This document shows, one piece after another, positions 13,322-41,796 of a stretch of DNA of 64,000 nt. Source of the stretch: an uncultured delta proteobacterium (lineage in GTDB: Bacteria > Myxococcota_A > Polyangia > Fen-1088). The notes beneath the pieces were generated by a model that was not told the DNA's origin, did no database searches, and saw only the letters and a list, made by a program, of their open reading frames with translations. The first letter of the stretch is position 1. Each line of letters opens with the position of its first letter. Position numbers and translations under genes: made by a program. The stretch spans positions 736,001 through 800,000 of the forward strand of contig CAVYGB010000008.1 of NCBI GenBank assembly GCA_963767925.1, written 5' to 3'.

Positions 13322-14586
13322 TTGCGAGAATCGGCGCAGCACGGCTTCTCGGCGGAGACCGAGGATGACACGACGGTCGCCGCCCAGGCTGGCGCGCCGG
13401 TGGGGCCCCTTGCCCCCACGCCGCTGACCGTCTCGAACGCCGACACCGGCGAGATCATCTCGATCGCGCCCGGACCCATCCTGACGGTCTCGGCCGAGGA
13501 GATCGCGCGCTTCTTCGTCCGGGTGAGGCGGGACCAGGACGCCGAGCGCTGGGACGTCCGTCTCGACGGCGCCCTCCGGGAGATCCTCGAGCGGGCCAAC
13601 GACTTCGTCCCCTCCGAGTCGGGCGGCATCCTGCTCGACGATCCCCGGGCCAAGCTGGCCGGCGTGCGGACGCCCCGCCTCACCTTCATCGCGGTGTACG
13701 GGCCAAACTCGGCCCAGCTGCTCGGCAAGCGGGTGCCCACCGAGCGGGGGTTCGTCGGGGAGATCTACCGGGGCGGCCGGGCGGTGCACACCGATCGGCT
13801 GACGGTCGACGATCCCCTGCTGGCCACCTTGCCCCCGCGATCCTCGGGCCCCCCGGTCCAGTCGATCATCGGCGTGCCCGTCATCGTCGGCGAGTCGATC
13901 TGCGGGGTGCTGCTTGCTGACCAACCGGCGGGCCGGCGGCGCCTACAGCACCCGGGAGAGCGAGCTGCTGCAGATCTTCGCCGCGTACATGTCCTCGTCG
14001 ATCCAGAACGCGCTCGACGCCATCCGGGCCCGGGCCCTCGCCCGGCTCGATCACCTCACCGGCCTGTTCAACAGCCGCTACTTTCACGTGCGGCTGCAGG
14101 ACGAGATCGCCCGGGCGGATCGCGAGGGGACGGAGCTGTCGATGCTGTTCGTCGACCTCGACAACTTCAAGCTGGTCAACGACCGCTTCGGCCACATGGC
14201 GGGGAGCTGGACCCTGCGCGAGGTGGCCCGGCTGCTCACCGAAAACGCGCCCCCCGCCACCGTGCTGGCCCGCTACGGCGGCGACGAGTTCGCCGCCATC
14301 CTGCCCAACACCGGCCTGGCCCGGGCGGTCCAGATCGGCCGAGCACCTCCGGCGCGTCATCGCCGACGCCACCCTCTTCGACATGGAGTCCGAGCCGGGG
14401 CAGCCGGCGCAGATGTTGCCCGGGGTGCGGGCCTCGGTCGGGGTGGCCTCCTACCGCGACCACCTGGCCCCGGGGGGCAACCAGCGCCGTCGGGGCAACG
14501 TGTTCCTGCGGCTGAGCGACTCGGCCATGTACCGCGCCAAGGCCAACGGCCGGAACCGGGTCGAGGTCGCCGAAGCCGAAGAATGA
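13322..14586 (+). CDS. GAF-sensor diguanylate cyclase (frameshifts near 13915 and 14340; start uncertain)
   Basis: GAF segment (GFVGEIY...SIIGVPV), then DHLTGLFNSRYF, DLDNFKLVNDRFGH, ARYGGDEF and SDSAMYRAKANGRNRV. Confidence 0.88.
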
Positions 14587-15176
14587 CCGCCGCCGTCCGG
14601 GCGGTCCTGCTGGTCGCCGCCGCGGGAGCGGCCTGCAACCGGGTGGGGGGAGAGGAGGGGCTCGAGGCCCGGACTCCCCTCGTCGAGCTGCGCGACGAGA
14701 CGGGCCAGCGGCGCCTGGCGGTCTGGAAGGTCGACGACGGGTTTCGCTGGCTCGACCGCCAGGAGGGCTCCGGCCGCATCCAGGTGGGGCCCGCCGAGCG
14801 GCTGCTGGCCCACGATCCCGAGCGCGGCCCGGTCGAGGTCTCGCCGCCCGGACCGGGTGGCCGGCAGCTCCGGCGGGCCGACGGCACGGCGCTCCGCCTC
14901 AGCCGGGAGGGCACCTTGCTGCGGCTGGGGGACGGGGCCGGCATTCCGCTGGCGCGCGCCCGGGTGGAGGCGGAGGAGGCCCTGGTTCACGACGCGGGTG
15001 GCGTCGTGGTCCTGCGGGCGCGCCGCGCGGGCGGACGCATCGTGGTGACGGATCGGGAGGGGCGCGCAGCGGCTTTCGTCGTGGGGCAGGCGTCGCCTGA
15101 ATACGCGGCGCTGGCCGCCCTGCCCGGGATGCGCGCGGTGGAGCGGGCTCTGTTGCTCGTCGTGCGGGGACCGTGA
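14583..15176 (+). CDS. Hypothetical lipoprotein
   Basis: ATGA overlap with the cyclase stop; signal/lipobox MTAAVRAVLLVAAAGAAC; beta-rich body. Confidence 0.6.
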   Translation: MTAAVRAVLLVAAAGAACNRVGGEEGLEARTPLVELRDETGQRRLAVWKVDDGFRWLDRQEGSGRIQVGPAERLLAHDPERGPVEVSPPGPGGRQLRRADGTALRLSREGTLLRLGDGAGIPLARARVEAEEALVHDAGGVVVLRARRAGGRIVVTDREGRAAAFVVGQASPEYAALAALPGMRAVERALLLVVRGP

Positions 15177-15190
15177 GGGAGAAGCGGCGG

Positions 15191-15388
15191 TTACTCTTCA
15201 GCCAGCGCCCGCGCCAGGATCCGGACCGCGAGCTTGTACGGCTCGACGCGATACCGACCAGCAGCCACCAGCCTCCGCAACTCCTCCACCCGTGCCGCCC
15301 GCGCGATCTGCTCGCCGCTGCGCGAAGCCGCCACGGAGGCGCGCTTGCCGGAGAGCTTTCGCGAGGTGTGCCGACCTGTGAACGTCAT
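15191..15388 (-). CDS. flgM: FlgM-like anti-sigma28 factor (65 aa)
   Basis: RAARVEELRRLVAAGRYRVEPYKLAVRIL matches the FlgM C-terminal sigma-binding helices; lies directly downstream of a sigma28 gene. Confidence 0.8.
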   Translation of the reverse strand: MTFTGRHTSRKLSGKRASVAASRSGEQIARAARVEELRRLVAAGRYRVEPYKLAVRILARALAEE

Positions 15389-15395
15389 ACCCACT

Positions 15396-15423
15396 TCATC
15401 GACCGGAATCCGGAGACTCTTTA
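15396..15423 (-). promoter_or_regulatory. Sigma28 promoter (TAAA-N16-GTCGATGA) for flgM
   Basis: Minus strand reads cTAAAgagtctccggattccgGTCGATGAagtgggtATG, versus consensus TAAA-N15/16-GCCGATAA. Confidence 0.65.
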
Positions 15424-15502
15424 GAGCCGAACCCCGAAAAAAGCGCGCGAAGTAGGAAAGTCCAGGGATTTCGGTGGTTTTACGCTCAGGCCAGACCCCC
15501 GG

Positions 15503-16272
15503 TCAGGCCGCGACGGTCTCTTCCAGCTCGCTCAGCGACTCACGAAGTCGGCGGGTGGCCTCTCCGTGGATCTGGCAGACCCGAGACTCGGTGACGCCCA
15601 GAACCTCGCCGATCTCCTTGAGATTCAGGTTCTCGCAGTAATAAAGGGAGAGGACCTGCTGCATCTTCTCGGGCAGATCGTCGATGCCGTCCACCAGCCG
15701 GGCCAGGGTCTCCCGGTGGGCCGTCACCTCGAAGGGGTCGGGGAGCTCTCGTCGCTGGTGCGCTCCAGGAAGTCGGGCCCCGCGTCGTCGATGCCGACCA
15801 CCGACGACCCCGACAGCTTCTGCTGGCGGGCGTACAGCTCGTCGACCGCCACCCCGAGGGTCTCGGCCAGCTCCTCCTGGTCGGGCGAACGACCGAGCTG
15901 CGACTCCAGCCGACGGGTCGCCTCGCGCAGCTCGTTGGACAGCCGCCGCATGTCGCGCGACAGGGTGTCGCGGGCGCGCAGGTCGTCCAGCATGGCGCCG
16001 CGGATCCGGTATTCGGCGAAGGCCTCGAACCGATCGACCCGCTTGGGGTCGTAGCGCTCGGCCGCTTCCATCAGGCCGATCACGCCCGAGGAGATCAGGT
16101 CGTCGATCTCGACGTGGGCGGGCAGTCGGCGCGCCAGCCGGCGGGCGACCTTCTCGATGTATGGAAAGAACTTAGCGGCGTACTCTCGCCGCCGATCCGC
16201 CAGAGCCTTGCGAGACAGCTTCGGTGCCCGTTTGGGTCGCTTCCGCTTGGGCGCAACAGCTTTGGTCGGCAT
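15503..16272 (-). CDS. fliA: FliA/WhiG family RNA polymerase sigma28 factor (frameshift near 15735-15750)
   Basis: RLPAHVEIDDLISSGVIGL, FAEYRIRGAMLDDLR, region 4 LSLYYCENLNLKEIGEVLGVTESRVCQIH. Confidence 0.92.
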
Positions 16273-16285
16273 GCTGGCGCAGACG

Positions 16286-16301
16286 AGCAGAGTTCGTGCC
16301 A
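16286..16301 (-). promoter_or_regulatory. Sigma54 (-24/-12) promoter for fliA
   Basis: Minus strand TGGCACGAACTCTGCT has exact GG-N10-GC spacing (consensus TGGCAC-N5-TTGCW). Confidence 0.72.
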
Positions 16302-16469
16302 GCGAAGGCTCTGCAGAAAGCTCGCGATCCCATTGGTGTAGGACGTGTGGGACGGCCCAAGAGCGTCAGAGGGATGACGATCTTGGGCTCTTGACGGCGT
16401 CAGCCCGGTGACGATGTTTTTCTGTCTTCGCTCCTGCTCTGACACCCTCACTCCCGGCTCGTCGGAACG

Positions 16470-17816
16470 TCAGGCGACGTTGCGACGTCGTAGCTTCTCC
16501 ACCAATGTCGTACGGTTCATGCCGAGCAGCTCGGCGGCGCGATTCTTGTTGCCTCCCGTGCGGGCCAGTGCCTGCTTGATGAATCGATCTTCGAGCTGCG
16601 ACAGCAACATTCGCAAGTCAACCCCCGAAGGAGGAAGATCCAGCCGGCCGGCGTTGACGTCGACGACGTCGTCTCGCAGGTTGGGCGGCAGATCGTCCAG
16701 CGTGACGGTGCGATTGCCCGCCAGCAGCACGAGCCGCTCGATGGCGTTCTCGAGCTGGCGCACGTTGCCCGGCCAGTCGTGGGTCTGCAGCCGGGCCAGC
16801 ACCTCGGAGGTGAAGCCGGGCACCAGGCGGGCGTCGCGGGCGTTGAACTCCTTGCGGAAGTGCTCGGCCAGCAGGGTGATGTCCTCCCGGCGCTCGCGCA
16901 GGGGGGGCAGCTCGATGGGGATGACGTCGAGCCGGTAGTAGAGGTCCTCCCGGAAGTACCCGTCCTTGACCAGTTGCTCGAGGTTGCGGTGGGTGGCGGC
17001 GATGACCCGCACGTCGAAGGCCACGCTCTCGCCACCGCCCACCGGCTGCACCGTCCGCTCCTGCAGGGCGCGCAGCAGCTTGGCCTGCAGGCCCTTGGGC
17101 ATGTCCCCGATCTCGTCGAGGAAGAGCGAGCCGTGGTCGGCTGACTGGAACTTCCCCATGCGGGTGCGCTCGGCCCCCGTGAAGGCGCCCCGCACGTGCC
17201 CGAACAGCTCGGACTCCGCCAGGTTCTCGGGGATGGCGGCCATGTTCATCGCCACGAAGGGCGCCGCCCGCCGCGAGCTGGAGGTGTGGATGAGCCGGGC
17301 CACCACCTCCTTGCCGGTCCCGGTCTCGCCCCGGATGAGGACGTTGGCGTCGGTGTCGGCGACCTGGTCGATGCGCTCGAGCACGAGCCGCATGGCCGGA
17401 TGGTCCCCGATGAGGGCGGCCCGCTGCGCCCGATGGGTGCGGCTGTTCCCGCTGCGCTCGTCGAGGACCCGCAGCAGGCTCTCTTCCAGGGCGGTGTGGT
17501 GGAAGGGCTTGGCCAGGAAGTCGGCCGCCCCCAGGCGGAGGGCGGTGATGGCGTCGCCCACCGTTCCGTTGCCCGTCAGGACGATGACGGGGATCGGGGG
17601 CCGCCGGCGGCGCGCCGCTTCGAGGACCTGGAAGCCGTTCCGCTTGGGTAGCTGCAGGTCGGTCACGCACAGATCGACGTCGTCCTGCTCGAGGCGGTGG
17701 ATGGCCAGCTCGCCATCGGCCGCATACACGACCTCGCCGCTGCTTACGCGCAGACTACGTTGGAGCGCGGCGAGAACCGCCGGATCCTCGTCGACGAGGA
17801 GGACGCGCGTCCGCAT
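16470..17816 (-). CDS. Sigma54-dependent response regulator (REC-AAA+-Fis HTH), FleQ/FgrM-like
   Basis: REC with Asp (CVTDLQLP), Walker A GETGTGKE, GAFTGA, LFLDEIG; C-terminus LPPSGVDL...NRTTLVEKLRR resembles FleQ-type regulators. Confidence 0.9.
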   Translation of the reverse strand: MRTRVLLVDEDPAVLAALQRSLRVSSGEVVYAADGELAIHRLEQDDVDLCVTDLQLPKRNGFQVLEAARRRRPPIPVIVLTGNGTVGDAITALRLGAADFLAKPFHHTALEESLLRVLDERSGNSRTHRAQRAALIGDHPAMRLVLERIDQVADTDANVLIRGETGTGKEVVARLIHTSSSRRAAPFVAMNMAAIPENLAESELFGHVRGAFTGAERTRMGKFQSADHGSLFLDEIGDMPKGLQAKLLRALQERTVQPVGGGESVAFDVRVIAATHRNLEQLVKDGYFREDLYYRLDVIPIELPPLRERREDITLLAEHFRKEFNARDARLVPGFTSEVLARLQTHDWPGNVRQLENAIERLVLLAGNRTVTLDDLPPNLRDDVVDVNAGRLDLPPSGVDLRMLLSQLEDRFIKQALARTGGNKNRAAELLGMNRTTLVEKLRRRNVA

Positions 17817-17918
17817 GTGCGAAGAGATTCATCGGCTGAAAGAGGGGTGCCTTGACGACGCCACCGTCGGTCCGGCGGCTGTTGCGTCCGGCCAAGCGGC
17901 CCGCGCCCTGCGGCAGCT

Positions 17919-19556
17919 CTACTTCTCTTCGCTCCAGGGTCCGCGCATACCGAGCTTGGTCAAGATCAGGCCGAACTCCTTCTTGTGAGGCGCCCGGGCG
18001 TAGGCCTCCTCGGGTTCGACCAGCTGGTTCTTGACGAGCTCGACGAGGGTATCGTTCAGCGTTTGCATGCCGAGCGACTTTCCGGTCTGCATGAGCGAAG
18101 GGATCTGGAAGGTCTTCCCCTCGCGGATCAGGTTGGCCACCGCCGGCGTCACCACGAGGATCTCGAGCGCCGCCACCCGCCCGCCGCCCTTCTTGCGCAG
18201 CAGGGTCTGGGCGACCACGCCCTTGAGGGACTCGGAGAGCATCACCCGCACCTGGGGCTGGCGGTCGGTGGGAAACTGATCGATGAGCCGATCGACCGTG
18301 GAGGGCGCGGTGTTGGTGTGGAGCGTTCCGAACACGAGGTGGCCCGTCTCGGCCGTCTCGATGGCGATGGCCACCGTCTCGAGGTCGCGCATCTCGCCCA
18401 CCAGCACGATGTCGGGGTCCTCGCGCAGGGCGGCCCGCAAGGCGGCCTTGAAGCCCTTCGTGTGGGTCCCCACCTCGCGCTGGTTGATGAGGCACTTCTT
18501 GTCCTTGTGGACGAACTCGACCGGGTCCTCGATGGTGATGATGTGATCGTCCCGGTTGGCGTTGATCCAGTCCACCATCGCGGCGAGGGTCGTCGACTTG
18601 CCGCTGCCGGTCGGCCCCGTCACCACCACCAGCCCCTTGTCGAACTGGCAGAAGTCGATGCAGGCCTTCGGCAGACCCAGCGTCTCGACGCTGAGGATCT
18701 TCGAGGGGATCTGGCGGAAGACGGCGCCCACGCCGGCGATGTCCCGGAAGACGTTGCAGCGCATGCGGGCCCGGCCGGGCAGGGCGTAGGCGAAGTCGGT
18801 GTCGCTGGTCTCGCGGAACTCGATCTGGTTACGCTCGGGCATCATCGGCTCGAACATCCTCTCGAGCTCGGTCGAGCTGAGCGGGCCCCGTCCGGGCACG
18901 GTGGCGATCGACCCGTCGACCCGCACCATGGGGACGTTGCCCGACTTGAGGTGCAGGTCGGAGGCCTTCATGTCGAGCATCTGATGGAAGAGCTGGTCCA
19001 TCGTCACTGGCTCGAGGTTGATCGAGGAGGTCGGAGGGGACCGCCCGAAGAGCGCGGCAGAGGAGGGGCCCGAGACCAGCACGGGGGCCGGTGTGTGCAG
19101 CGAGGGCAGGCTGGCCTGGGGGGCGCTGGTCGCCGGTGGCTCTGGCCCGAGGGCGGCCGAGACCGAGGAGATGGACACGCCCTGCCGCCCGTCCGCGTGC
19201 CCCGGACCCGGCGAGGGTCCCGGCCCGGCGTTGGTGTGGCCGCTGGGCATGGGCGCCGGCGTCCCCGACAGCAGGATCCGAACCTGCAGCCCCATCTGGC
19301 TGTCGTCGACCTGCAGGATGGCCGCGCCCAGCGGGGACTGATACGGATAGCTCCGCTTGCCCGAGACCCCCGGCGCGTAGGCCGGACCGAGTGCCTCGCT
19401 CAGCAAGGCAGAGATCTGCTCCTCGGAGACCGGCTTGCTCGTCGCAGGTCGGGGCACTCCCGACATGATGAGCTCGATGGGAGCGCCGGGTCGAAGCACG
19501 AGCGCTTCCGCTCTGTGCTTGACCAGGCCTTCGAGGTACTTGTCGACGACCGCCAC
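17919..19556 (-). CDS. pilT: Type IV pilus retraction ATPase PilT with an extra N-terminal domain
   Basis: ASDLHL, GPTGSGKSTT, TIEDPVE, LREDPDIVLVGEMRD, GHLVFGTLHT, AVANLIRE. Start placed at GTG 19556. Confidence 0.9.
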   Translation of the reverse strand: MAVVDKYLEGLVKHRAEALVLRPGAPIELIMSGVPRPATSKPVSEEQISALLSEALGPAYAPGVSGKRSYPYQSPLGAAILQVDDSQMGLQVRILLSGTPAPMPSGHTNAGPGPSPGPGHADGRQGVSISSVSAALGPEPPATSAPQASLPSLHTPAPVLVSGPSSAALFGRSPPTSSINLEPVTMDQLFHQMLDMKASDLHLKSGNVPMVRVDGSIATVPGRGPLSSTELERMFEPMMPERNQIEFRETSDTDFAYALPGRARMRCNVFRDIAGVGAVFRQIPSKILSVETLGLPKACIDFCQFDKGLVVVTGPTGSGKSTTLAAMVDWINANRDDHIITIEDPVEFVHKDKKCLINQREVGTHTKGFKAALRAALREDPDIVLVGEMRDLETVAIAIETAETGHLVFGTLHTNTAPSTVDRLIDQFPTDRQPQVRVMLSESLKGVVAQTLLRKKGGGRVAALEILVVTPAVANLIREGKTFQIPSLMQTGKSLGMQTLNDTLVELVKNQLVEPEEAYARAPHKKEFGLILTKLGMRGPWSEEK

Positions 19557-19651
19557 GGCCACGACAACACTCGTCTTTTGAAGCCCTGAACTTGAGCGCC
19601 TGCATTGACACTGTCGTTGCTTTCCCCTAGGGTTCCCGCGGCTCGACGACC

Positions 19652-20198
19652 ATGGCACTCGAGTTTTCTGCCCAAGCTAAGCAACAGATCGAGCGAATGC
19701 GCATGCGCTACCCCACGAGGCAGGCGGCGCTCCTTGCCGGTGCTTCACATCGCACAGGACGAGTTTGGTCATCTCTCCGACGAGGCGATCGAGCTCGTCT
19801 CCAGCACGTTGGCGCTCCCCCCGGCTCACGTCTTCGGGGTCGTCACGTTTTACACGATGTTCCACCGCGAGCCGCGGGGGAGCAACGAGCTCATGGTCTG
19901 CACCAACGTTTCCTGCATGTTGCGAGGGGCCTACGACATCCTCGCGCACCTGCAGAAGCGGCTGGGTGTCGGACCCGGGGAGACGACCGCCGACGGCGCC
20001 TTCACCCTCATCGAAGAGGAGTGTCTGGCGGCCTGCGCGAACGCCCCGATGATGATCTGCGGACCGGAGTACTACCTCGATCTCACCCCGGAGAAGGTCG
20101 ACCGCATCCTCGACGACCTCAAGAAGCGGCACTCGGAGCGCAAGAAGGCGACCCCCGCTGATCGCGCGCCCCAGGCGACGCAAGCAGCCAAGCCGTAG
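19652..20198 (+). CDS. nuoE: NADH-quinone oxidoreductase subunit E (frameshift near 19735)
   Basis: YPTRQAALLPVLHIAQ, VVTFYTMF, [2Fe-2S] ligands CTNVSC...CLAAC. Confidence 0.92.
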
Positions 20199-20208
20199 GA
20201 CGACTCAG

Positions 20209-21547
20209 ATGGGCTCGCAGGACGCCACAAACACCAAGATCGTCACCAAGAACTTCGGTGTGCCGAATTCGCACCGTCTGGCCACCTATCTGCAAAGAGG
20301 GGGCTGGGACGGGTTCCGCCGGGCACTCACCTTCACCCCGACCAGCCTCACCGACGAGGTGAAGAAGTCCAACCTGCGCGGCCGCGGCGGCGCCGGCTTC
20401 TCCACCGGGATGAAGTGGTCCTTCGTGCCCAAGGAGGCCAAGCGGGTCTACCTGGTGTGCAACGCCGACGAGTCGGAGCCCGGCACCTGCAAGGATCGGG
20501 AGCTGATGGCGCTCGATCCCCACCTGCTCATCGAGGGCATGGCCATCGCGTCGTACGCCCTGGGCTGCAAACACGCCTACATCTATATCCGGGGTGAGAT
20601 GATCCGCGAGGCGCAGCATCCTCCAGGCCGCCATCGACGAAGCCTACGAGGCGGGCTGGCTGGCCAAGGATCACCTGGCGGCCAATGGAGTCTTCCGTCT
20701 CGACCTGACCCTGCACCGGGGCGCGGGCGCCTACATCTGCGGTGAGGAGACCGGCCTGCTCAACTCGCTCGAGGGCAAGCGCGGCTGGCCCCGCCTCAAG
20801 CCTCCCTTCCCCGCGGTGCGCGGCCTCTTCCAGGAGGCCACCATCGTCAACAATGTCGAGACGTTGATGAACATCCCCGACATCATCCTCAAGGGGGGCG
20901 AATGGTTCGCCCGCCTGGGGGTGGGCAAGTCGGGCGGAACCCGGATCGTCTGCGTCTCGGGCCACGTCAAGCGGCCCGGCGTCTTCGAGCTGCCGATGGG
21001 CATGCCCTTCCGGGAGCTGATCTACGACGTCTGCGGCGGCATGAGCGGGTCGGCTCCCCTCAAGGGGCTGATTCCGGGCGGCAGCTCGATGCCCCCTCTG
21101 GACGCCAGCGAGATCGACGTCCCCATCGAGTTCGACGCCCTCATGACCGACCCCCGGATCAAGGACGTCGAGGTCCGCCCGGGCGTCCCCTTCGATCTGG
21201 GCGGCGGGCGGCGCCTCAAGACCATGGCCGGCTCGGGCGGCATCGTGGTGTTCGACGAGGCGACCGACGTGGTGGCGCTCTGCGCCCGCATCATGAAGTT
21301 CTACGCGCACGAGTCTTGCGGCCAGTGCACGCCCTGCCGGGAAGGCACCGGCTGGCTGGCCCGGGTCTGCCAGCGGCTCGTCGAAGGGGACGGACGTCCC
21401 GGTGACGTCGACCTGCTGGCCAACATCGCCGTTGGCATCGCCGGCAACACCATCTGCGCGCTCGGCGAGGCTGCGGCCTGGCCGATGCTCGGGTTCCTCA
21501 CCAAGTTTCGCTCCGACTTCGAAGCCCGCCTGAGGAAGGCGGCCTGA
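20209..21547 (+). CDS. nuoF: NADH-quinone oxidoreductase subunit F (frameshift near 20615)
   Basis: LRGRGGAGF, NADESEPGT, GAGAYICGEETGL, ESCGQCTPCREG, TICALG. Confidence 0.94.
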
Positions 21548-32921: not shown

Positions 32922-34237
32922 CCCAGGTCCACGCCGACCAGCGGGACGGCCACCGATCGCAGGAAGAAGCGCAGCCCGATCCCCACCGAGGTGTGGGCGT
33001 CGCGCTTGGCGCTGAAGCCCGCCGTGAGATGGCTGGGCGGCAGGAACCGCCGGCCGTCGGCCCGCTCGTAATAGGCCAGCCCGCTGGGATCTACCTCGGG
33101 CAACTCGCGGTACCAGATGGCGGTGGCGTCGTTGAAGATCAGGCCCCGAAAGTCGAGCTTCCGGATGCTGAAGAGCGGGAAGTGGTACTCGAGCTGGGTG
33201 CGCAGGTGGGTATCGCCGGCAAACTGCCGGTGCACGAAGCCGCGCAGGTTCCCCCCGCCCGCCGAGTTCTCGCTCCAGAAGGGCATGTTGCGTCCGACGT
33301 AGGCCCCGCCTCGCAGGATGAAGTTGTGCCGCCGCAGGAAGCGGATGCCGTGCTCGTAAGACGCGCGCGCCTTCCAGTACTTGAACTTGGCGTCCCCCCC
33401 CCAGCGCGGGTCGCCGTGGTCGAGGCTGAAGCTGAGGGCGTTGCCCCACATGACCGCGTGCTCGCGGGCACGAAAGTCGAAGGTCAGCTCGGCCTCGGCG
33501 TAGGCCCGCACACCCCCCTCGGCCGGCGCCGGCAGATCTCCGGTGCCGGGAAACTGCTCCTCGTTGCCCCGCACCCAGCGCACCTGCGGCCGATCGATGC
33601 CCCAGCCGACGCTGGTCTTGACCCGCCGGAACCAGGCCACCCCGAACTTGGCGTTGAAGCCGAAGGAGCGCAGGTTGGTCTCCCGCACCGGCGCCAGCAC
33701 CGACAGATCCATGTTCGAATATTCGGGGATGGTCTGGTCCTGAACGTTCCCGGCGAACTGATAGAACATCCAGGTACCGAACAGCGCCGGGTCCTGGTAG
33801 GCGACGATGGCCCCCGAGTCGGCGGTGGAGAGGCGGCCGCCGATGATGCCGCGTTTGCCCCGGCCGAACAGGTTGCCGTGGGCCACCACCAGCCCGGCCG
33901 ACAGGTTGCCCGGCGCGTACGAGAGGGTCGGCACCGGGGCCCAGGGGAACTTGTCGCGGATGACGATGTTGACCCGCACCCCATCGCGGTAGGGCACCCA
34001 GTACACGTTGACCTCGGAGAACAGGCCGCTCGTGTTGAGCCGCTCGCGCACCTCCTCCAGGGTGTGGACCTCCATGACGTCGCCGATGGCGATCCCCGCG
34101 ATCGATCGGACAGTCTCTTCTTCGGTGCGGGCGTTGTCCTCGACGCGGATGTCCCGGATCACCTCGCCGATGGCGAAGGCTGCCCGCGGGAGCGCCAGGG
34201 CGAGCGCGATCCCGAGCAGGCAAGCGAGTCTATGCAT
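32870..34237 (-). CDS. Omp85 (BamA/TamA-like) outer-membrane protein with one POTRA domain
   Basis: Signal peptide; POTRA (IRVEDNARTEEETV...LNTSGLFSEV); HGNLFGRG; loop-6 motif GGGNLRGF; GIGLRF...GVDLGYG. Confidence 0.8.
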   Translation of the reverse strand: MHRLACLLGIALALALPRAAFAIGEVIRDIRVEDNARTEEETVRSIAGIAIGDVMEVHTLEEVRERLNTSGLFSEVNVYWVPYRDGVRVNIVIRDKFPWAPVPTLSYAPGNLSAGLVVAHGNLFGRGKRGIIGGRLSTADSGAIVAYQDPALFGTWMFYQFAGNVQDQTIPEYSNMDLSVLAPVRETNLRSFGFNAKFGVAWFRRVKTSVGWGIDRPQVRWVRGNEEQFPGTGDLPAPAEGGVRAYAEAELTFDFRAREHAVMWGNALSFSLDHGDPRWGGDAKFKYWKARASYEHGIRFLRRHNFILRGGAYVGRNMPFWSENSAGGGNLRGFVHRQFAGDTHLRTQLEYHFPLFSIRKLDFRGLIFNDATAIWYRELPEVDPSGLAYYERADGRRFLPPSHLTAGFSAKRDAHTSVGIGLRFFLRSVAVPLVGVDLGYGVPEGPVRVVLVIGA

Positions 34238-34284
34238 ACACCCCAGTCTATAACGGGGACTTTGCTTGGCGAGGGATCAGGTGT

Positions 34285-35823
34285 GTGACCTCCACCCCCG
34301 GAGTGGGAGCCGGCGCGCATCCACCGCTGGAACGCCCGGACGCCACGCCAGATGCGGAGCGAATCCTGCGTGGAGCTCCCTCGGAGTATCATCACGGAGC
34401 GGCGATGGGGCAAGGCGGGGGGGCGGGCGAGCGGACACTGACGGCGATGCGTTCTTCCCTGGCGCGCGCCGAGGAGCCCAGCATCCCGATCCTGTTCCTG
34501 GCCGGCGGCGGGCCGGCCGGACCCTCGGCGACCCGGGCGCGCTTCCGGCTGGTGGGTGAGGAGCTGCTCCTCGGCCGCAGCGCCGAGGGGGAGGCGCTCC
34601 CCGAGACGGGCGTGCTGCGCCTGGTTGACCCCCTGATCTCGGGCCGCCACGCCCGCCTCCTGCGCACGGCCGCGGGCCTGGACCTCGAGGATCTCGAGAG
34701 CAAGAACGGGACCCTCCTGCAGGGGCGGCGGCTCACGGGGCGGATCGCGCTGGCCTCCGGGCAGCCCTTCTTCATCGGGGGCCACGCGCTGCTGTGGCGG
34801 ATGGTCTCGGCGATCGAGCTCGAGGCGCTCGAGGCCGAGGCGACCAGCCCCCTGGGTCCGGTCGCAACGGTTTCACCGAGCCTGGCGCTCATCGCCAGCA
34901 AGCTCCGTCGCTGGGCCGAGAGCGGCGACGAGATCCTCCTGCTCGGCGAGAGCGGGGTGGGCAAGGAGGTCTACGCGCGCGCGGTGCACGCCGCCAGCCG
35001 TCTCGCCGGACCGTTCGTCGCGGTCAACTGCGCCGCCCTCCCGCGCGATCTGGTCGAGAGCGAGCTGTTCGGTTACCGCCCGGGGGCCCACTCCACCGCC
35101 CGGGCGGCCAAGCCCGGGCTGATCGAGCGGGCCGAGGGGGGCACCCTCTTTCTCGACGAGATCGGAGAGATGCCCCAGGACGCCCAGGCCAAGCTCCTCC
35201 GCTTTCTCCAGGACCGGGAGCTGCTCCCCCTGGGCGCCACCCAGCCCCGGCGCCTGGACGTGCGGGTGCTGGCCGCCACCAACCGCCCGGTGGCGCCCGA
35301 TCAGCCCGGCTCGCTGCGGGCCGACCTGCTGGGGCGGCTGGGCGCGGCCCCCGTTCACCTGCCGCCGCTGCGCGAGCGGGTCGAGGACCTCGGCGCCCTG
35401 GTCGGTCACATGCTGGAGCGGCTCAGCCGCGTGCGGGCGGCGGGCCCTCCCGAGCTCGAGCCGGCGGCCTTCCGCGCGCTGTTTGCCTACCGCTGGCCGC
35501 TCAACGTGCGCGAGCTCGAGAAGGTCCTGGCCGCCGGGGCGGCGCTCACCCTCGGGACCCGCCCGATCGGGCTGCGGGACCTGCCTCCCGCGCTGGCCGC
35601 GGGGGTCACGGGCACGACCTCACCGGCGCTGCCGGCCGCGGTCGTCGTCCCGGGACGCAAGGCGCCCGCGCCCGGCCCCTCCCCCCAGGAGCTGGCTGCC
35701 TTGCTCGAGCGCCACCAGGGGAACGTGGCCGACGTGTCGCGCGCGCTGGGGCGACAACGCGCAGCGGTCTGGCGCTGGATCAAACGTTTCGGCCTCCCGG
35801 TGGAGCGCTCGAAGAATAAGTAG
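34285..35823 (+). CDS. FHA-domain sigma54-interacting transcriptional regulator (start uncertain)
   Basis: FHA (LLGR...DPLISGRHA...DLESKNGT), GESGVGKE, ESELFGY-GAHSTA, LFLDEIG, WPLNVREL, C-terminal HTH. Confidence 0.87.
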   Translation: MTSTPGVGAGAHPPLERPDATPDAERILRGAPSEYHHGAAMGQGGGAGERTLTAMRSSLARAEEPSIPILFLAGGGPAGPSATRARFRLVGEELLLGRSAEGEALPETGVLRLVDPLISGRHARLLRTAAGLDLEDLESKNGTLLQGRRLTGRIALASGQPFFIGGHALLWRMVSAIELEALEAEATSPLGPVATVSPSLALIASKLRRWAESGDEILLLGESGVGKEVYARAVHAASRLAGPFVAVNCAALPRDLVESELFGYRPGAHSTARAAKPGLIERAEGGTLFLDEIGEMPQDAQAKLLRFLQDRELLPLGATQPRRLDVRVLAATNRPVAPDQPGSLRADLLGRLGAAPVHLPPLRERVEDLGALVGHMLERLSRVRAAGPPELEPAAFRALFAYRWPLNVRELEKVLAAGAALTLGTRPIGLRDLPPALAAGVTGTTSPALPAAVVVPGRKAPAPGPSPQELAALLERHQGNVADVSRALGRQRAAVWRWIKRFGLPVERSKNK

Positions 35824-39002: not shown

Positions 39003-41360
39003 ATGAGCCTCCACGAAAAACTGCGGCGTGTCCCGTCTGTCGCCTGGGCCGCGCTGTTCGCCCTCTTGCTGGTCTTCCCCTTCCTGGGGTCCTTCGGGTT
39101 CTGGGATCCCTGGGAGCTCAACCTCGCCGAGAAGGCGCGCGACATGATGCGCGCGGGACAGCTCGCCGACCCCACCGCCGGCCGCGGCTACCAGGCCGAG
39201 CCGCCCCTGGATCTGTTCCTGGCCGCCCTGGGGATGAAGCTGTTCGGCGCCCAGGAGCTGGGCGCGCGCCTCGGCAACGCGCTCTTCGCCGTGGGGGCGC
39301 TGCTCTCGGTGTACTGGGCGGGGCTGGGCCTGTTCCGGCGGCGGGCCGCCCTGCTGGCCACCCTGGCCCTCGGCACGATGCCGCTGTTTTTCCTGCAGGC
39401 CCGCCAGCTCACCTCCGACATCCCGCTCATCGCCGGACTGGCCCTCGCCCTCGGCGGGCTGGGGCGTTACACCTGGCCCGCGGCTGGACGGCGCCGGCTA
39501 CAGGACCTCCTCGTCGGCGCGACGGGCATGGCGATCGGCACCCTCTCCGGTGGCGCCATGCTGGGGGTGGCGCTGCCTGCGCTCGCGGTGGCCGGCACGG
39601 TGCTGGTCGTCTGGGGCCTGACCCCGGCCGAGCTGGTGCCGGGAGCCGATCCCGGGTTGACCGCGCCGGGGCTGGGCGCCGACGTGCCCGCCGGCCGCCC
39701 CTTCGGACGCAGCCTGCTGGCCAACCCGCGCGGCATCGCCGTGCTCGTCATCGGGGCGGTGGGGCTCGCGGTGCTGCTGCTGACCCTCACCCGGGCCAAC
39801 CTGGCCGGAGAATATTCGCTCCTGCTCGGCGGGACGCCCAAGGGCGGGACCCCGCCCCACAAGTTCGAGTACCTGATCCGTCAGATCGGCTTCGGCATCT
39901 TCCCCTGGAGCGCGCTGGTGGTCTTCGCCCTGGGGCGGGCCCTGGTGCGCCTCGGTGAAGACGACGCCGGCAAGGGCGCGCGCCTGACCTTCTCCCAGCT
40001 CTACCTGCTGGTGTTCGCCGCCTTCGGGTACGCCCTGGTGACCGTGTTCGTCCTCATGACGGGCGAGGCGCGCTTCGCGCCGCTGGCCGCCCTGGCCCTC
40101 GCGGTTGGCGCCTTCCTGGACGAGGCCCTCGAGGGCGAGCGGGTCGAGCCGGTGCTCGGGCTCGTGGTGGGCACCGGCACGATGGTCGTGGCGCGCGATC
40201 TGTTCCTGGCGCCCGAGGAGCTGGCCTCGCTCCACGTCCTCAACAAGGTCAAGTGGCCGCCCCAGCTTCGGCTCGGCCCGATCTTCCTGGTGGCCGGTCT
40301 CGTTGTCGCGCTCGGCATCTACCTGGGCCTGGCTACCCGCGGCCGAGCGCTGGCCAAGGTGGGCCCCCGGGAAGGGGGGACAGCGGGGTCCTGGCGCGGC
40401 CGGCTCGAGGGCCTCCTCGTCCAGGTCGGGCGCTGGGGCATCCACGGCGCGGTCGCCGGGGCAGTGATCTTCGCCCTCGGGATCGCCCACCTGCTCGTCC
40501 CCACCCTGTCCCGGCACTACTCGTTCAAGCCGGTCCTCGAGTCCTTCTCGCGCTACGCCCAGGGCGACGAGCCGATCGCCAAGTTCCGGGTGGAGGGGCA
40601 CGGCACCGGGTTTTACAGCGCGCGAGAGATGACCGACCTGCCGAGCCAGGATCGGGTGGTCGCCTTCCTCCGCCCGGAGAAGCGCGCGTTCGTCCTGGTG
40701 GCCTCGGAGGAGCTGGGCTCGCTGGACGCCGCGCTCCGGCTCGCCCGCGTCGACTACGTCGTGGTGGACGCCTCCTCTTCCCGTTTCCTCCTGCTGTCGA
40801 ACCGCCTGGGCAGCGGGGAGGAGGATCAGAACCCGCTGAAGAAATACGTGTGGATGGCGCCGCGCGTGCCCACGCCTGCCCCGGCGGGTGACAACACCGG
40901 CGGCATGCGCCACGACTGGCCCCAGGAGAAACCACCCTGGCCGCCGCCCCGGGTCGTTGCCGGCGCCGAGTTCGGCAACTCCATCGAGCTGCTGGGGGCG
41001 GAGTATCCGGCGGTGATCCGGCGGCCGGCCAAGATCCCGCTGACCCTGCACTTCCGTGTCAATCAGCGCCCGCCCGGGGGGTACAAGGTGTTCGTCCACT
41101 TCGACTCCACGGGCAACCCGCGGGTGCTGGGCGACCACGCACCGCTCGACGGTGTTTTTCCCACGTCGTACTGGCTTCCAGGGGAGTACATTAAGGACTT
41201 CGTGGAGGTGGACGTCCCTCTCATGACCACGCCCGCCGGGGTGTACACGCTCTACATCGGCTTCTGGCCGGGTGGAGAGCAGAAGCGACTTCGCGTAACC
41301 GGCGGCACCCTGGGAGATGGATTCGATCGTGTTCGGGTGGGAACCATTGACATCCGCTAG
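39003..41360 (+). CDS. GT-C fold membrane glycosyltransferase (ArnT/PMT, GT39/83-like) with periplasmic C-terminal domain
   Basis: GFWDPWE acidic first-loop motif, EPPL, many TM helices, C-terminal YKVFVHFD...DHAP...YWLPGEYI beta domain. Confidence 0.75.
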   Translation: MSLHEKLRRVPSVAWAALFALLLVFPFLGSFGFWDPWELNLAEKARDMMRAGQLADPTAGRGYQAEPPLDLFLAALGMKLFGAQELGARLGNALFAVGALLSVYWAGLGLFRRRAALLATLALGTMPLFFLQARQLTSDIPLIAGLALALGGLGRYTWPAAGRRRLQDLLVGATGMAIGTLSGGAMLGVALPALAVAGTVLVVWGLTPAELVPGADPGLTAPGLGADVPAGRPFGRSLLANPRGIAVLVIGAVGLAVLLLTLTRANLAGEYSLLLGGTPKGGTPPHKFEYLIRQIGFGIFPWSALVVFALGRALVRLGEDDAGKGARLTFSQLYLLVFAAFGYALVTVFVLMTGEARFAPLAALALAVGAFLDEALEGERVEPVLGLVVGTGTMVVARDLFLAPEELASLHVLNKVKWPPQLRLGPIFLVAGLVVALGIYLGLATRGRALAKVGPREGGTAGSWRGRLEGLLVQVGRWGIHGAVAGAVIFALGIAHLLVPTLSRHYSFKPVLESFSRYAQGDEPIAKFRVEGHGTGFYSAREMTDLPSQDRVVAFLRPEKRAFVLVASEELGSLDAALRLARVDYVVVDASSSRFLLLSNRLGSGEEDQNPLKKYVWMAPRVPTPAPAGDNTGGMRHDWPQEKPPWPPPRVVAGAEFGNSIELLGAEYPAVIRRPAKIPLTLHFRVNQRPPGGYKVFVHFDSTGNPRVLGDHAPLDGVFPTSYWLPGEYIKDFVEVDVPLMTTPAGVYTLYIGFWPGGEQKRLRVTGGTLGDGFDRVRVGTIDIR

Positions 41361-41367
41361 GGGGGGA

Positions 41368-41796
41368 ATGCGGGCCAAGGATCGCCGCCGCCGTGCGCTG
41401 CCGGTGGAGGAAGACCGTCGCAGCGCCCGCGATCGGCGGGGTCATGAGCGGGTTCTGGTTCACATCGAGGTGGACTACCGCTGCGACGACACCTTCCTGT
41501 TCGCCTACATCACCGACCTGTCGGCGATGGGCATCTTCATCCGGACCGCGCTGCCCAATCCGCCGGGAACCCGGCTGAACCTGCATTTCGCCCCGCCCGG
41601 CAGCGCGCCCATCGACGTCGAGGGGGAGGTCATGTGGACCAACCCCAACCGACCCGGGCGCGCCGAGAACCTGAATCCCGGCATGGGTGTGCAGTTCGTC
41701 GACCTGACGCCGCAGCAGCGGGATCGGGTCATGAGCCTGGTGCGTACGTTCGCCTATCTCAGCGACGACGACGGCGACCCCAAGGGGAACTCCTAG
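41368..41796 (+). CDS. PilZ-domain protein (myxobacterial TIGR02266-like)
   Basis: RRGHER (RxxxR), DLSAMGIFIRT (DxSxxG), GEVMWT, PGMGVQF. Confidence 0.85.
   Translation: MRAKDRRRRALPVEEDRRSARDRRGHERVLVHIEVDYRCDDTFLFAYITDLSAMGIFIRTALPNPPGTRLNLHFAPPGSAPIDVEGEVMWTNPNRPGRAENLNPGMGVQFVDLTPQQRDRVMSLVRTFAYLSDDDGDPKGNS

Follow-up and report, generated by a model that had tools for sequence, protein, structure and literature searches.

The window analyzed here is a 64,000-nucleotide (nt) stretch from an uncultured delta proteobacterium (Polyangia; Fen-1088), covering positions 736,001-800,000 of contig CAVYGB010000008.1 in assembly GCA_963767925.1. The genome (G000) comprises 9.3 Mb in 13 contigs with a completeness of 83.8%; the contig is labelled C8 and the window starts at 736 kb of it. 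Three co-oriented genes on the minus strand encode an NtrC-type response regulator that activates sigma-54, a sigma-28 factor of the FliA/WhiG family and a short FlgM-like anti-sigma factor (Table 1); an earlier note made from the sequence letters had located the three genes, and Pfam searches confirmed them. The sigma and anti-sigma factors of the window were named FliA1 and FlgM1, and the corresponding pair of the flagellar clusters FliA2 and FlgM2. Comparisons were made with 80 related loci, found with the N-terminal sigma piece in bins of uncultured Polyangia/Myxococcales (76-99% identity), and with 61 genomes (species) of an uncultured family of Polyangia (myxobacteria), all of them metagenome bins. 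The synteny of the trio, which the earlier note proposed to check, is kept in essentially all of the 80 loci: the sigma gene has the activator gene on its upstream side and the FlgM-like gene on its downstream side.

Table 1. Features of the trio and related elements. Bare positions refer to the window; others give the genome or contig.
Feature	Position	Strand	Remarks
NtrC-type response-regulator sigma-54 activator, 448 amino acids (aa)	16470-17816	-	Pfam Response_reg, Sigma54_activat, AAA_lid_14, HTH_8; GAFTGA in translation
fliA1, FliA/WhiG-family sigma-28 gene	15503-16272	-	Pfam r2, r3, r4 over two open reading frames (ORFs)
flgM1, short FlgM-like anti-sigma gene, 65 aa	15191-15388	-	Pfam FlgM 28.2 bits vs cut-off 25
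Sigma-54 (-24/-12) promoter of fliA1, TGGCACGAACTCTGCT	16286-16301	-	Sole TGGCAYN6TGCW match in window
Distal enhancer palindrome CGTCA-N6-TGACG	16398-16413		-113 from sigma-54 motif
Proximal enhancer palindrome CGTCA-N6-TGACG	16364-16379		-79 from sigma-54 motif
Sigma-28-type promoter of flgM1, TAAAG-N16-TCGATG (pattern TAAAG-N16-GTCGATG)	15397-15423	-	ATG 8 nt downstream
Sigma-28-type promoter of activator gene, TCAAG-N15-CCGATG	17830-17855	-	ATG 13 nt downstream; own-genome scan
Flagellar cluster 1	C8 500-514 kb		Sigma-54 activator without receiver domain, flgC, fliE, fliF, fliG, fliH, flgD, flgE, flbD, motA, motB
Flagellar cluster 2	C8 559-580 kb		fliD, fliC, second flagellin-like gene, flgK, FlgM2, flgG, flgF, FliA2, flhF, flhA, flhB, fliR, fliP, fliO, fliN, fliM, fliL
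Rieske-domain paralogs	G000:C2:1666552-1667034; C7:2331-2795; C10:703392-703859

The gene trio, its promoters and its enhancer

The activator has the domain make-up of NtrC-type proteins, with a receiver domain (REC), an AAA+ domain carrying GAFTGA and a Fis-type helix-turn-helix (HTH). It scored above no equivalog cut-off among the 25 NCBIfam models listed, a list that holds no FleQ model; the generic NtrC model was best (425.8 vs a cut-off of 558.6), while FlbD gave 322.3 and FlgR 320.6 (both vs 750). Since no equivalog model was passed, FlbD and FlgR included, the label "FleQ/FgrM-like" given to it earlier is unsupported and the protein is treated as a generic NtrC-type response regulator. 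In the sigma gene, Sigma70_r2 and r3 were matched in ORF 15724-16272 and Sigma70_r4 in ORF 15503-15727, and Pfam found no region 1.1 or 1.2. The two pieces, scored separately, reached 142.2 and 80.5; the intact FliA1 ortholog of locus L029 reached 235.6 on NF005413 and 233.7 on TIGR02479 (cut-offs 201 and 189.6, respectively), outscoring the FliA2 of the window's own genome on the FliA and FliA/WhiG models. FliA1 orthologs are 252-288 aa long.

FlgM1 passed the Pfam cut-off but fell short of that of TIGR03824 (28 bits vs 40.75), where only model positions 48-95 of 98 were matched. Its orthologs (62-79 aa) share the C-terminal core RVE-LR-LVAAGQY-V-P-LA-KI, the rest being variable. A predicted complex placed FlgM1 residues 30-62 on sigma region 4, in contact with sigma residues 186-243. 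The complex score was 0.72, vs 0.00 for the best control, with at least 52% of contacts agreeing among three runs and a partner pLDDT (per-residue model confidence) of at least 62; among solved complexes, 116 of 157 attain the mark used for this score, as do 2 of 215 mismatched pairs. Because like complexes have already been solved, and the score may reflect memory of the FliA-FlgM structures among them, the model indicates likeness and not binding.

The -24/-12 match before fliA1 has a chance expectation of 0.36 in the window, and 30 of 100 shuffled sequences gave at least one match, which makes it weak by itself; the motif GG(C/T)A-N-N5-N-TGC is, in turn, kept in 77 of 81 sequences. The distance from the -12 C to the fliA1 ATG is 14-16 nt in 68 of 73 loci, and with the usual spacing of sigma-54 promoters this corresponds to a leader of about 2-4 nt. 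Upstream of this promoter, the two palindromes, 34 bp apart, are fixed at -113 and -79 in 77/81 sequences. The tandem arrangement occurred at two places in the whole genome, vs none in the control, and in all 61 family genomes, where it is usually single and next to fliA1; nearly all controls gave 0. Across the class, it was found in 46/46 genomes of this family and in 15/254 elsewhere, most of the 15 being unrelated repeats.

For the flgM1 promoter pattern, two matches were found in the window vs 0.04 expected, and of 78 intergenic regions examined, 77 have CT(A/C/T)AAG-N15/16-(G)CCGATG ahead of flgM. All but one of these 77 place the ATG 7-8 nt past the -10 octamer. This fixed spacing identifies ATG 15388 as the true start of flgM1, in place of the GTG at 15394 chosen by the earlier note, and predicts a leaderless message. 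Before the activator gene, a promoter of the same type with a relaxed -35 was found within 80 nt of the ATG in 66/66 loci (strict form, 40/66); as controls, none of 65 stretches taken from within the gene matched, and a shuffled set gave 0.15 hits on average. The -24/-12 site and the sigma-28-type site named by the earlier note before fliA and flgM both lie at the positions given there, and conservation supports them far more than the chance figures of the window do. Motifs of the sigma-28 type (like TAAA-N15-GCCGATAA) are conserved before flgM1 and the activator gene, and their recognition by FliA1 is a prediction. With such a promoter before the activator gene, the feedback loop would be closed. 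No sigma-70 promoter was found in a scan of positions 15000-18100. The earlier description of the cascade as self-contained is supported by an enhancer that is essentially unique per genome and by the sigma-28-type promoter of the activator gene.

Most relatives (L056-L106 and others) share a further conserved palindrome, TGTTGC-N7-GCAACA, some 35 nt before the -35 element of the activator promoter, which suggests an additional regulator input on this gene. The window keeps only a half-site, owing to pilT as the immediate upstream neighbor.

What was observed directly is the genes and motifs, together with how they are conserved and spread over genomes; from this we infer which protein acts at which site. 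The activator, gated by phosphorylation, would bind the two CGTCA-N6-TGACG sites and fire the sigma-54 promoter of fliA1. FliA1 would then read CT(A/C/T)AAG-N15/16-(C/T)CGATG before flgM1, as a negative arm, and the same promoter type before the activator gene, as a positive arm, the loop being damped by FlgM1 on sigma region 4. Switch-like behavior may be expected of such a circuit. All three messages are predicted to start at, or a few bases from, their ATG.

The first reading missed that the sigma gene is split. Relative to L029 and L030, a 1-nt gap at about 15740-15743 places it in two reading frames, whereas it is in one frame in 76 of the 77 related loci holding both halves; the sole exception, L104, is another long-contig bin. 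A real frameshift would make the locus a decaying remnant in this genome, with FliA2 and FlgM2 having taken over, and such a frameshift would fit a gene one base shorter than its close relatives at a site that public reads leave uncovered: among the runs listed, none of them an RNA run, the share of sampled words found was 0.12 at most, and four soil runs yielded short contigs identical to the window at 15231-15433 and 17512-17781. Against decay, the sigma halves are 99% and 100% identical in protein to L029, the gene of G303 is intact at 99%, and neither the promoters nor the enhancer of the window show any damage. The DNA alignment to L029 (83-86% identity) is noisy, and isolated indels are usable at 15742, 14335, 13915 and 20617. 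The break is very probably an assembly error, since the genes for rpoN, nuoF, a GGDEF protein and an FHIPEP protein are split as well and completeness is only 83.8% despite 13 contigs; a decaying remnant is accordingly most improbable. Single-base indel errors seem to be common in this assembly, so that its other apparent pseudogenes should be treated with caution.

The other split genes, each broken into two to four reading frames, are rpoN, which is present in the genome in this form (G000:C8:278763-279240), nuoF (window 20209-21547), the GAF-GGDEF gene next to the trio (window 13322-14586) and an FHIPEP gene in four pieces (G000:C2:1269278-1271284).

Occurrence of the trio with and without flagellar genes

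Of 47 window ORFs scanned with Pfam (7 + 40), none matched a flagellar or type III export family, in line with the earlier statement that the 64 kb hold no such gene. The suggestion that the organism has no flagella did not stand. The whole-genome search found a flagellar set on the same contig, 156-236 kb from the window (C8 500-580 kb), comprising flgB/C, fliE-H, flgD/E, motAB, fliL-R, flhA/B/F, flgF/G/K/L, fliC and fliD; flgH, flgI and fliI were outside the search. It is the only flagellar gene set found in this genome, and it contains its own second FliA, second FlgM (FlgM2, canonical, 101 aa) and second sigma-54 activator. The motif CTTAAC-N16-(C/T)CGAA(A/G)(A/G) occurs only twice in the 9.3 Mb, before fliC and flgM2 (G000:C8:561385-561413 and 564546-564574), and not in the control. 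The earlier note had equated a complete flagellar set elsewhere, with sigma-28 promoters before fliC, with an ordinary dispersed flagellar regulon; such a set is largely present, and the fliC promoter is sigma-28-like.

Searched across the family as CTTAAC-N15-17-YCGAARR, this motif was no commoner than in the control, and G304 alone has it ahead of flagellin, at both flagellin genes. As a promoter type specific to FliA2 it is therefore kept only as a hint. A third FliA/WhiG-like sigma factor (G000:C8:3090388-3092409; L027:10211-12613) scored 148 bits on TIGR02479, below the cut-off; it adjoins a 286-aa protein of the YscJ/FliF family, with a PspA gene close by.

The trio appears to be connected to the flagellar genes at two points. 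A FliA1-type motif precedes the activator gene of the flagellar cluster (C8:499952; the ATG follows after 8 nt), and of 29 flagellated relatives, 20 have a FliA1-type promoter there, though one of these is uncertain. The only other tandem enhancer of the genome, of the CG(C/T)CA-N6-TG(A/G)CG type, is found 80 nt ahead of the sigma-54 promoter that serves the fliL operon; this operon continues to flhA and FliA2. In flagellated members the order would thus run from the trio to the flagellar sigma-54 activator and the fliL operon, then to FliA2, and from there to fliC and flgM2; the module probably sits above the flagellar hierarchy in these members.

Presence of the trio does not follow presence of flagella. 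FliA1 was found in 61/61 sampled species at 78% identity or more, compared with flagellin in 39/61 and a FliG match of at least 120 bits, taken as strong, in 36/61. By contrast, FliA2 orthologs (52-75% identity, beside flhA) were found in 33/61 and flagellar-activator orthologs (61% identity or more) in about 35/61, all of them flagellated, so that these two track the structural genes and FliA1 does not. The 22 flagellin-negative genomes had no FliG match above 27 bits, no FliA2, no flagellar activator and no FlhA of the high-scoring class, and all of them keep FliA1 (79-99% identity) and the tandem enhancer. They include all sampled species of genus g7 (7/7) and most of g6 (7/8), good assemblies such as G109 (100% complete), G009 (97%, 20 contigs), G178 (10 contigs) and G215 (9 contigs), and G303 (86% complete), another species of the window's own genus. 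In G178 the trio is intact with both sigma-28-type promoters. The presence of FliA1 in all 61 genomes, including 22 without flagellin or strong FliG, indicates that the module is kept independently of flagella.

Alternatively, the trio could be the class I/II regulators of an ordinary dispersed flagellar regulon, the "non-flagellated" bins being incomplete or recent losers. The flagellar set on the same contig, the FliA1-type promoter before the flagellar activator here and in 20/29 relatives, and the enhancer of the same type before the fliL operon agree with this. In Vibrio cholerae, moreover, fliA is activated by a sigma-54 activator. This explanation is nevertheless unlikely, given that the five flagellar markers are missing together from 22 of 61 genomes, that whole genera (g7 and g6) and near-complete or few-contig genomes are among these, that all 22 retain FliA1 and the enhancer, and that the flagellar cluster has a FliA2 and a FlgM2 of its own. 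We therefore favor the trio being a conserved regulatory module, closed by feedback and kept with or without flagella, over its being a stray piece of a flagellar operon, and regard this as likely.

Flagellar genes are patchy within the family down to the genus, being present in the window's own genome and missing from G303, which points to repeated loss or transfer of the clusters. In g9, g13 and g139, a second FliA1-like paralog (56-63% identity) has its own tandem CGTCA-N6-TGACG enhancer (for example G306:C41:101539-102210, G144:C7:126628-127298 and G077:C72:37596-38271), which means that certain lineages have a duplicated module.

The genome-wide scan for sigma-28 motifs proposed by the earlier note gave 95 FliA1-type sites, compared with 25 in the reversed sequence used as control. 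A selection of 32 downstream ORFs starting within 30 nt of a site, made by pattern, was scanned against Pfam. Many of them encode signaling proteins: STAS, an RsbW-like kinase, REC-SpoIIE, REC-HD-GYP, REC-GGDEF, histidine kinases, Ser/Thr kinases and CheW. The other outputs of the module are thus predicted to be mostly signaling proteins. Three small paralogs with a Rieske domain (about 155-160 aa) each follow a FliA1-type motif and may form a repeated unit.

Several observations weigh against a conserved module with these outputs. The predicted regulon was obtained by pattern matching, and about a quarter of its sites are expected by chance (25 vs 95). Nine of the 29 flagellar-activator genes lack a FliA1-type motif. 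The strict leaderless pattern matched only 6 sites in one and 4 in the other of two non-flagellated genomes, vs 1 and 0 in the controls; two of these sites, in G178, are those of the trio itself, and on reading the translations no downstream ORF was recognizable as a predicted target of the window's own genome. The promoters are assigned to FliA1, and not to FliA2 or the third sigma factor at C8:3090388, by reasoning from sequence, as are the palindromes to the adjacent activator in a genome that has many activators. FlgM1 falls below the NCBIfam FlgM cut-off, and its complex with the sigma factor is open to the bias mentioned above. Since the genomes are metagenome bins, absence of flagellar genes means "not found" at a completeness of 63-100% for the 22. 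Finally, no read or contig spans position ~15740; the four soil runs matched only the two intervals given above.

FlgM1 and its predicted release

The earlier note had seen in the locus a repurposed switch whose anti-sigma factor would need a release route other than the flagellum. In its core this holds for the family, with its 22 species without flagellin, and does not hold for this flagellated genome. In those 22 of 61 genomes, in which no flagellar markers were found, exit of FlgM1 through a flagellum would be impossible. PMC5655016 reports that Legionella oakridgensis keeps only FliA and FlgM, that flgM is expressed there from a sigma-28 promoter and that FlgM appears to be degraded and not exported. 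By analogy, degradation is the most likely route of release for FlgM1.

Export of FlgM1, through the flagellar gate in flagellated species or through a second, non-flagellar gate in all species, was also considered. A second operon with FliP, FliQ, FliR and FlhB homologs is located on the minus strand at G000:C8:2004205-2007242 (L187:14205-17242), directly after the ribosomal-protein/rpoA cluster and before priA, unlinked to the flagellar clusters. The second FliP was found in 57/61 family genomes, including ones without flagellar markers, and FHIPEP (FlhA-like) paralogs of at least two score classes were found in 61/61. Together with a variable N-terminal region of about 30 residues kept ahead of the binding core of FlgM1, these genes would be compatible with export. 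The genome scans, however, found no FliA1-type promoter, sigma-54 promoter or enhancer near the second gate, its surroundings yielded no ATPase, ring or needle genes, and the N-terminal half of the FlgM model has no counterpart in FlgM1. In the only flagellum-free case studied, FlgM appears to be degraded (PMC5655016). Export is for these reasons quite improbable.

The orphan FHIPEP genes at G000:C2:1269278-1271284 and G178:C2:1613440-1615500 were rejected as markers of secretion clusters, their flanks being an M16 peptidase and an MFS transporter, and glycosyl- and mannosyl-transferases, respectively; that they lie outside secretion clusters also counts against export.

More speculatively, FliA1/FlgM1 could be the checkpoint of a family-wide, flagellum-independent type III gate formed by the fliPQR-flhB genes beside rpoA and an orphan FlhA. 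FlgM1 would be secreted there, and the secretion-coupled bistable switch would set a motile or dispersal state and would later have been recruited to the flagellum in some lineages. Little credence is given to this proposal, and release by degradation remains preferred.

Relation to known systems and neighboring genes

In the four-tier flagellar hierarchies of Vibrio and Pseudomonas (FlrA/FleQ, FlrBC/FleSR, FliA, FlgM), sigma-54 activators act above sigma-28, and FlgM is under sigma-28 control. Unlike in these, the order predicted here is partly inverted, with a sigma-28 promoter before a sigma-54 activator gene. The present system also differs by its two FliA/FlgM pairs, by an activator that matches no FleQ, FlbD or FlgR model above its cut-off, and by its persistence without flagella. 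The hierarchy would be an unusual one, leading from a sigma-54 activator to a sigma-28 factor, on to a second sigma-54 activator and a second sigma-28 factor, and finally to flagellin.

In Chlamydia and Bdellovibrio, sigma-28 factors control life-cycle genes, either in place of flagella or in addition to them. Two FliA paralogs also occur in dual flagellar systems, such as the polar and lateral systems of Vibrio parahaemolyticus. Two sigma-28 paralogs in one genome, FliA and FliAL, are also described for Plesiomonas (PMC11242183). Unlike in the dual systems, only one flagellar set was found here and the extra paralog is the family-universal one. WhiG of Streptomyces is a sigma-28 family member controlling differentiation (PMC12871210). 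In contrast to WhiG/RsiG, the anti-sigma factor here is FlgM-like and not RsiG, and the tie to cyclic di-GMP consists only of predicted GGDEF and HD-GYP targets.

The nearest precedents are non-flagellated Legionella FliA/FlgM and the sigma-54/sigma-28 flagellar hierarchies. Within clade III, Legionella species such as L. oakridgensis have no flagellar genes and keep sigma-28 and FlgM, as stated in PMC5655016, which cites Tlapak et al. 2017. The trio is alike in that a sigma-28/FlgM pair is kept without flagella. It differs from the Legionella case as described there in that the pair is a paralog beside a second, flagellum-linked FliA/FlgM pair in flagellated relatives, and in having a dedicated sigma-54 activator, a closed loop as predicted, a genome-unique enhancer and a presence in all 61 species of a Polyangia family. 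It would thus be a second, independent, non-Legionella case of sigma-28/FlgM kept under strong selection without a flagellum (at least 78% identity, 61 species), with a circuit much clearer than that of Legionella owing to its activator, enhancer and three conserved promoters. Release of FlgM without a hook-basal body becomes testable in a new lineage.

Cultured Polyangia are, to our knowledge, non-flagellated; part of the group nevertheless carries full flagellar gene sets, patchy among genera and even inside one genus. A preprint notes flagellar assembly genes in Zodletone Myxococcota bins. The module was undescribed in the literature found on FliA in myxobacteria, on flagella of Polyangia/Myxococcota and on FliA/FlgM of non-flagellated bacteria.

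The neighbors named in the earlier note, pilT and a diguanylate cyclase gene, were recovered. On the 5' side of the trio lies pilT (17919-19658), encoding a PilT/PilU-family ATPase (TIGR01420, 462.9 bits); in the 80 related loci this gene adjoins the trio only about 12 times. Its product has an N-terminal extension of ~215 residues without a family match. On the 3' side, the GAF-GGDEF gene is spread over three reading frames. Elsewhere in the window, a second sigma-54 activator of the FHA-AAA+-HTH type is encoded at 34078-35820 and a PilZ-domain protein at 41299-41793.

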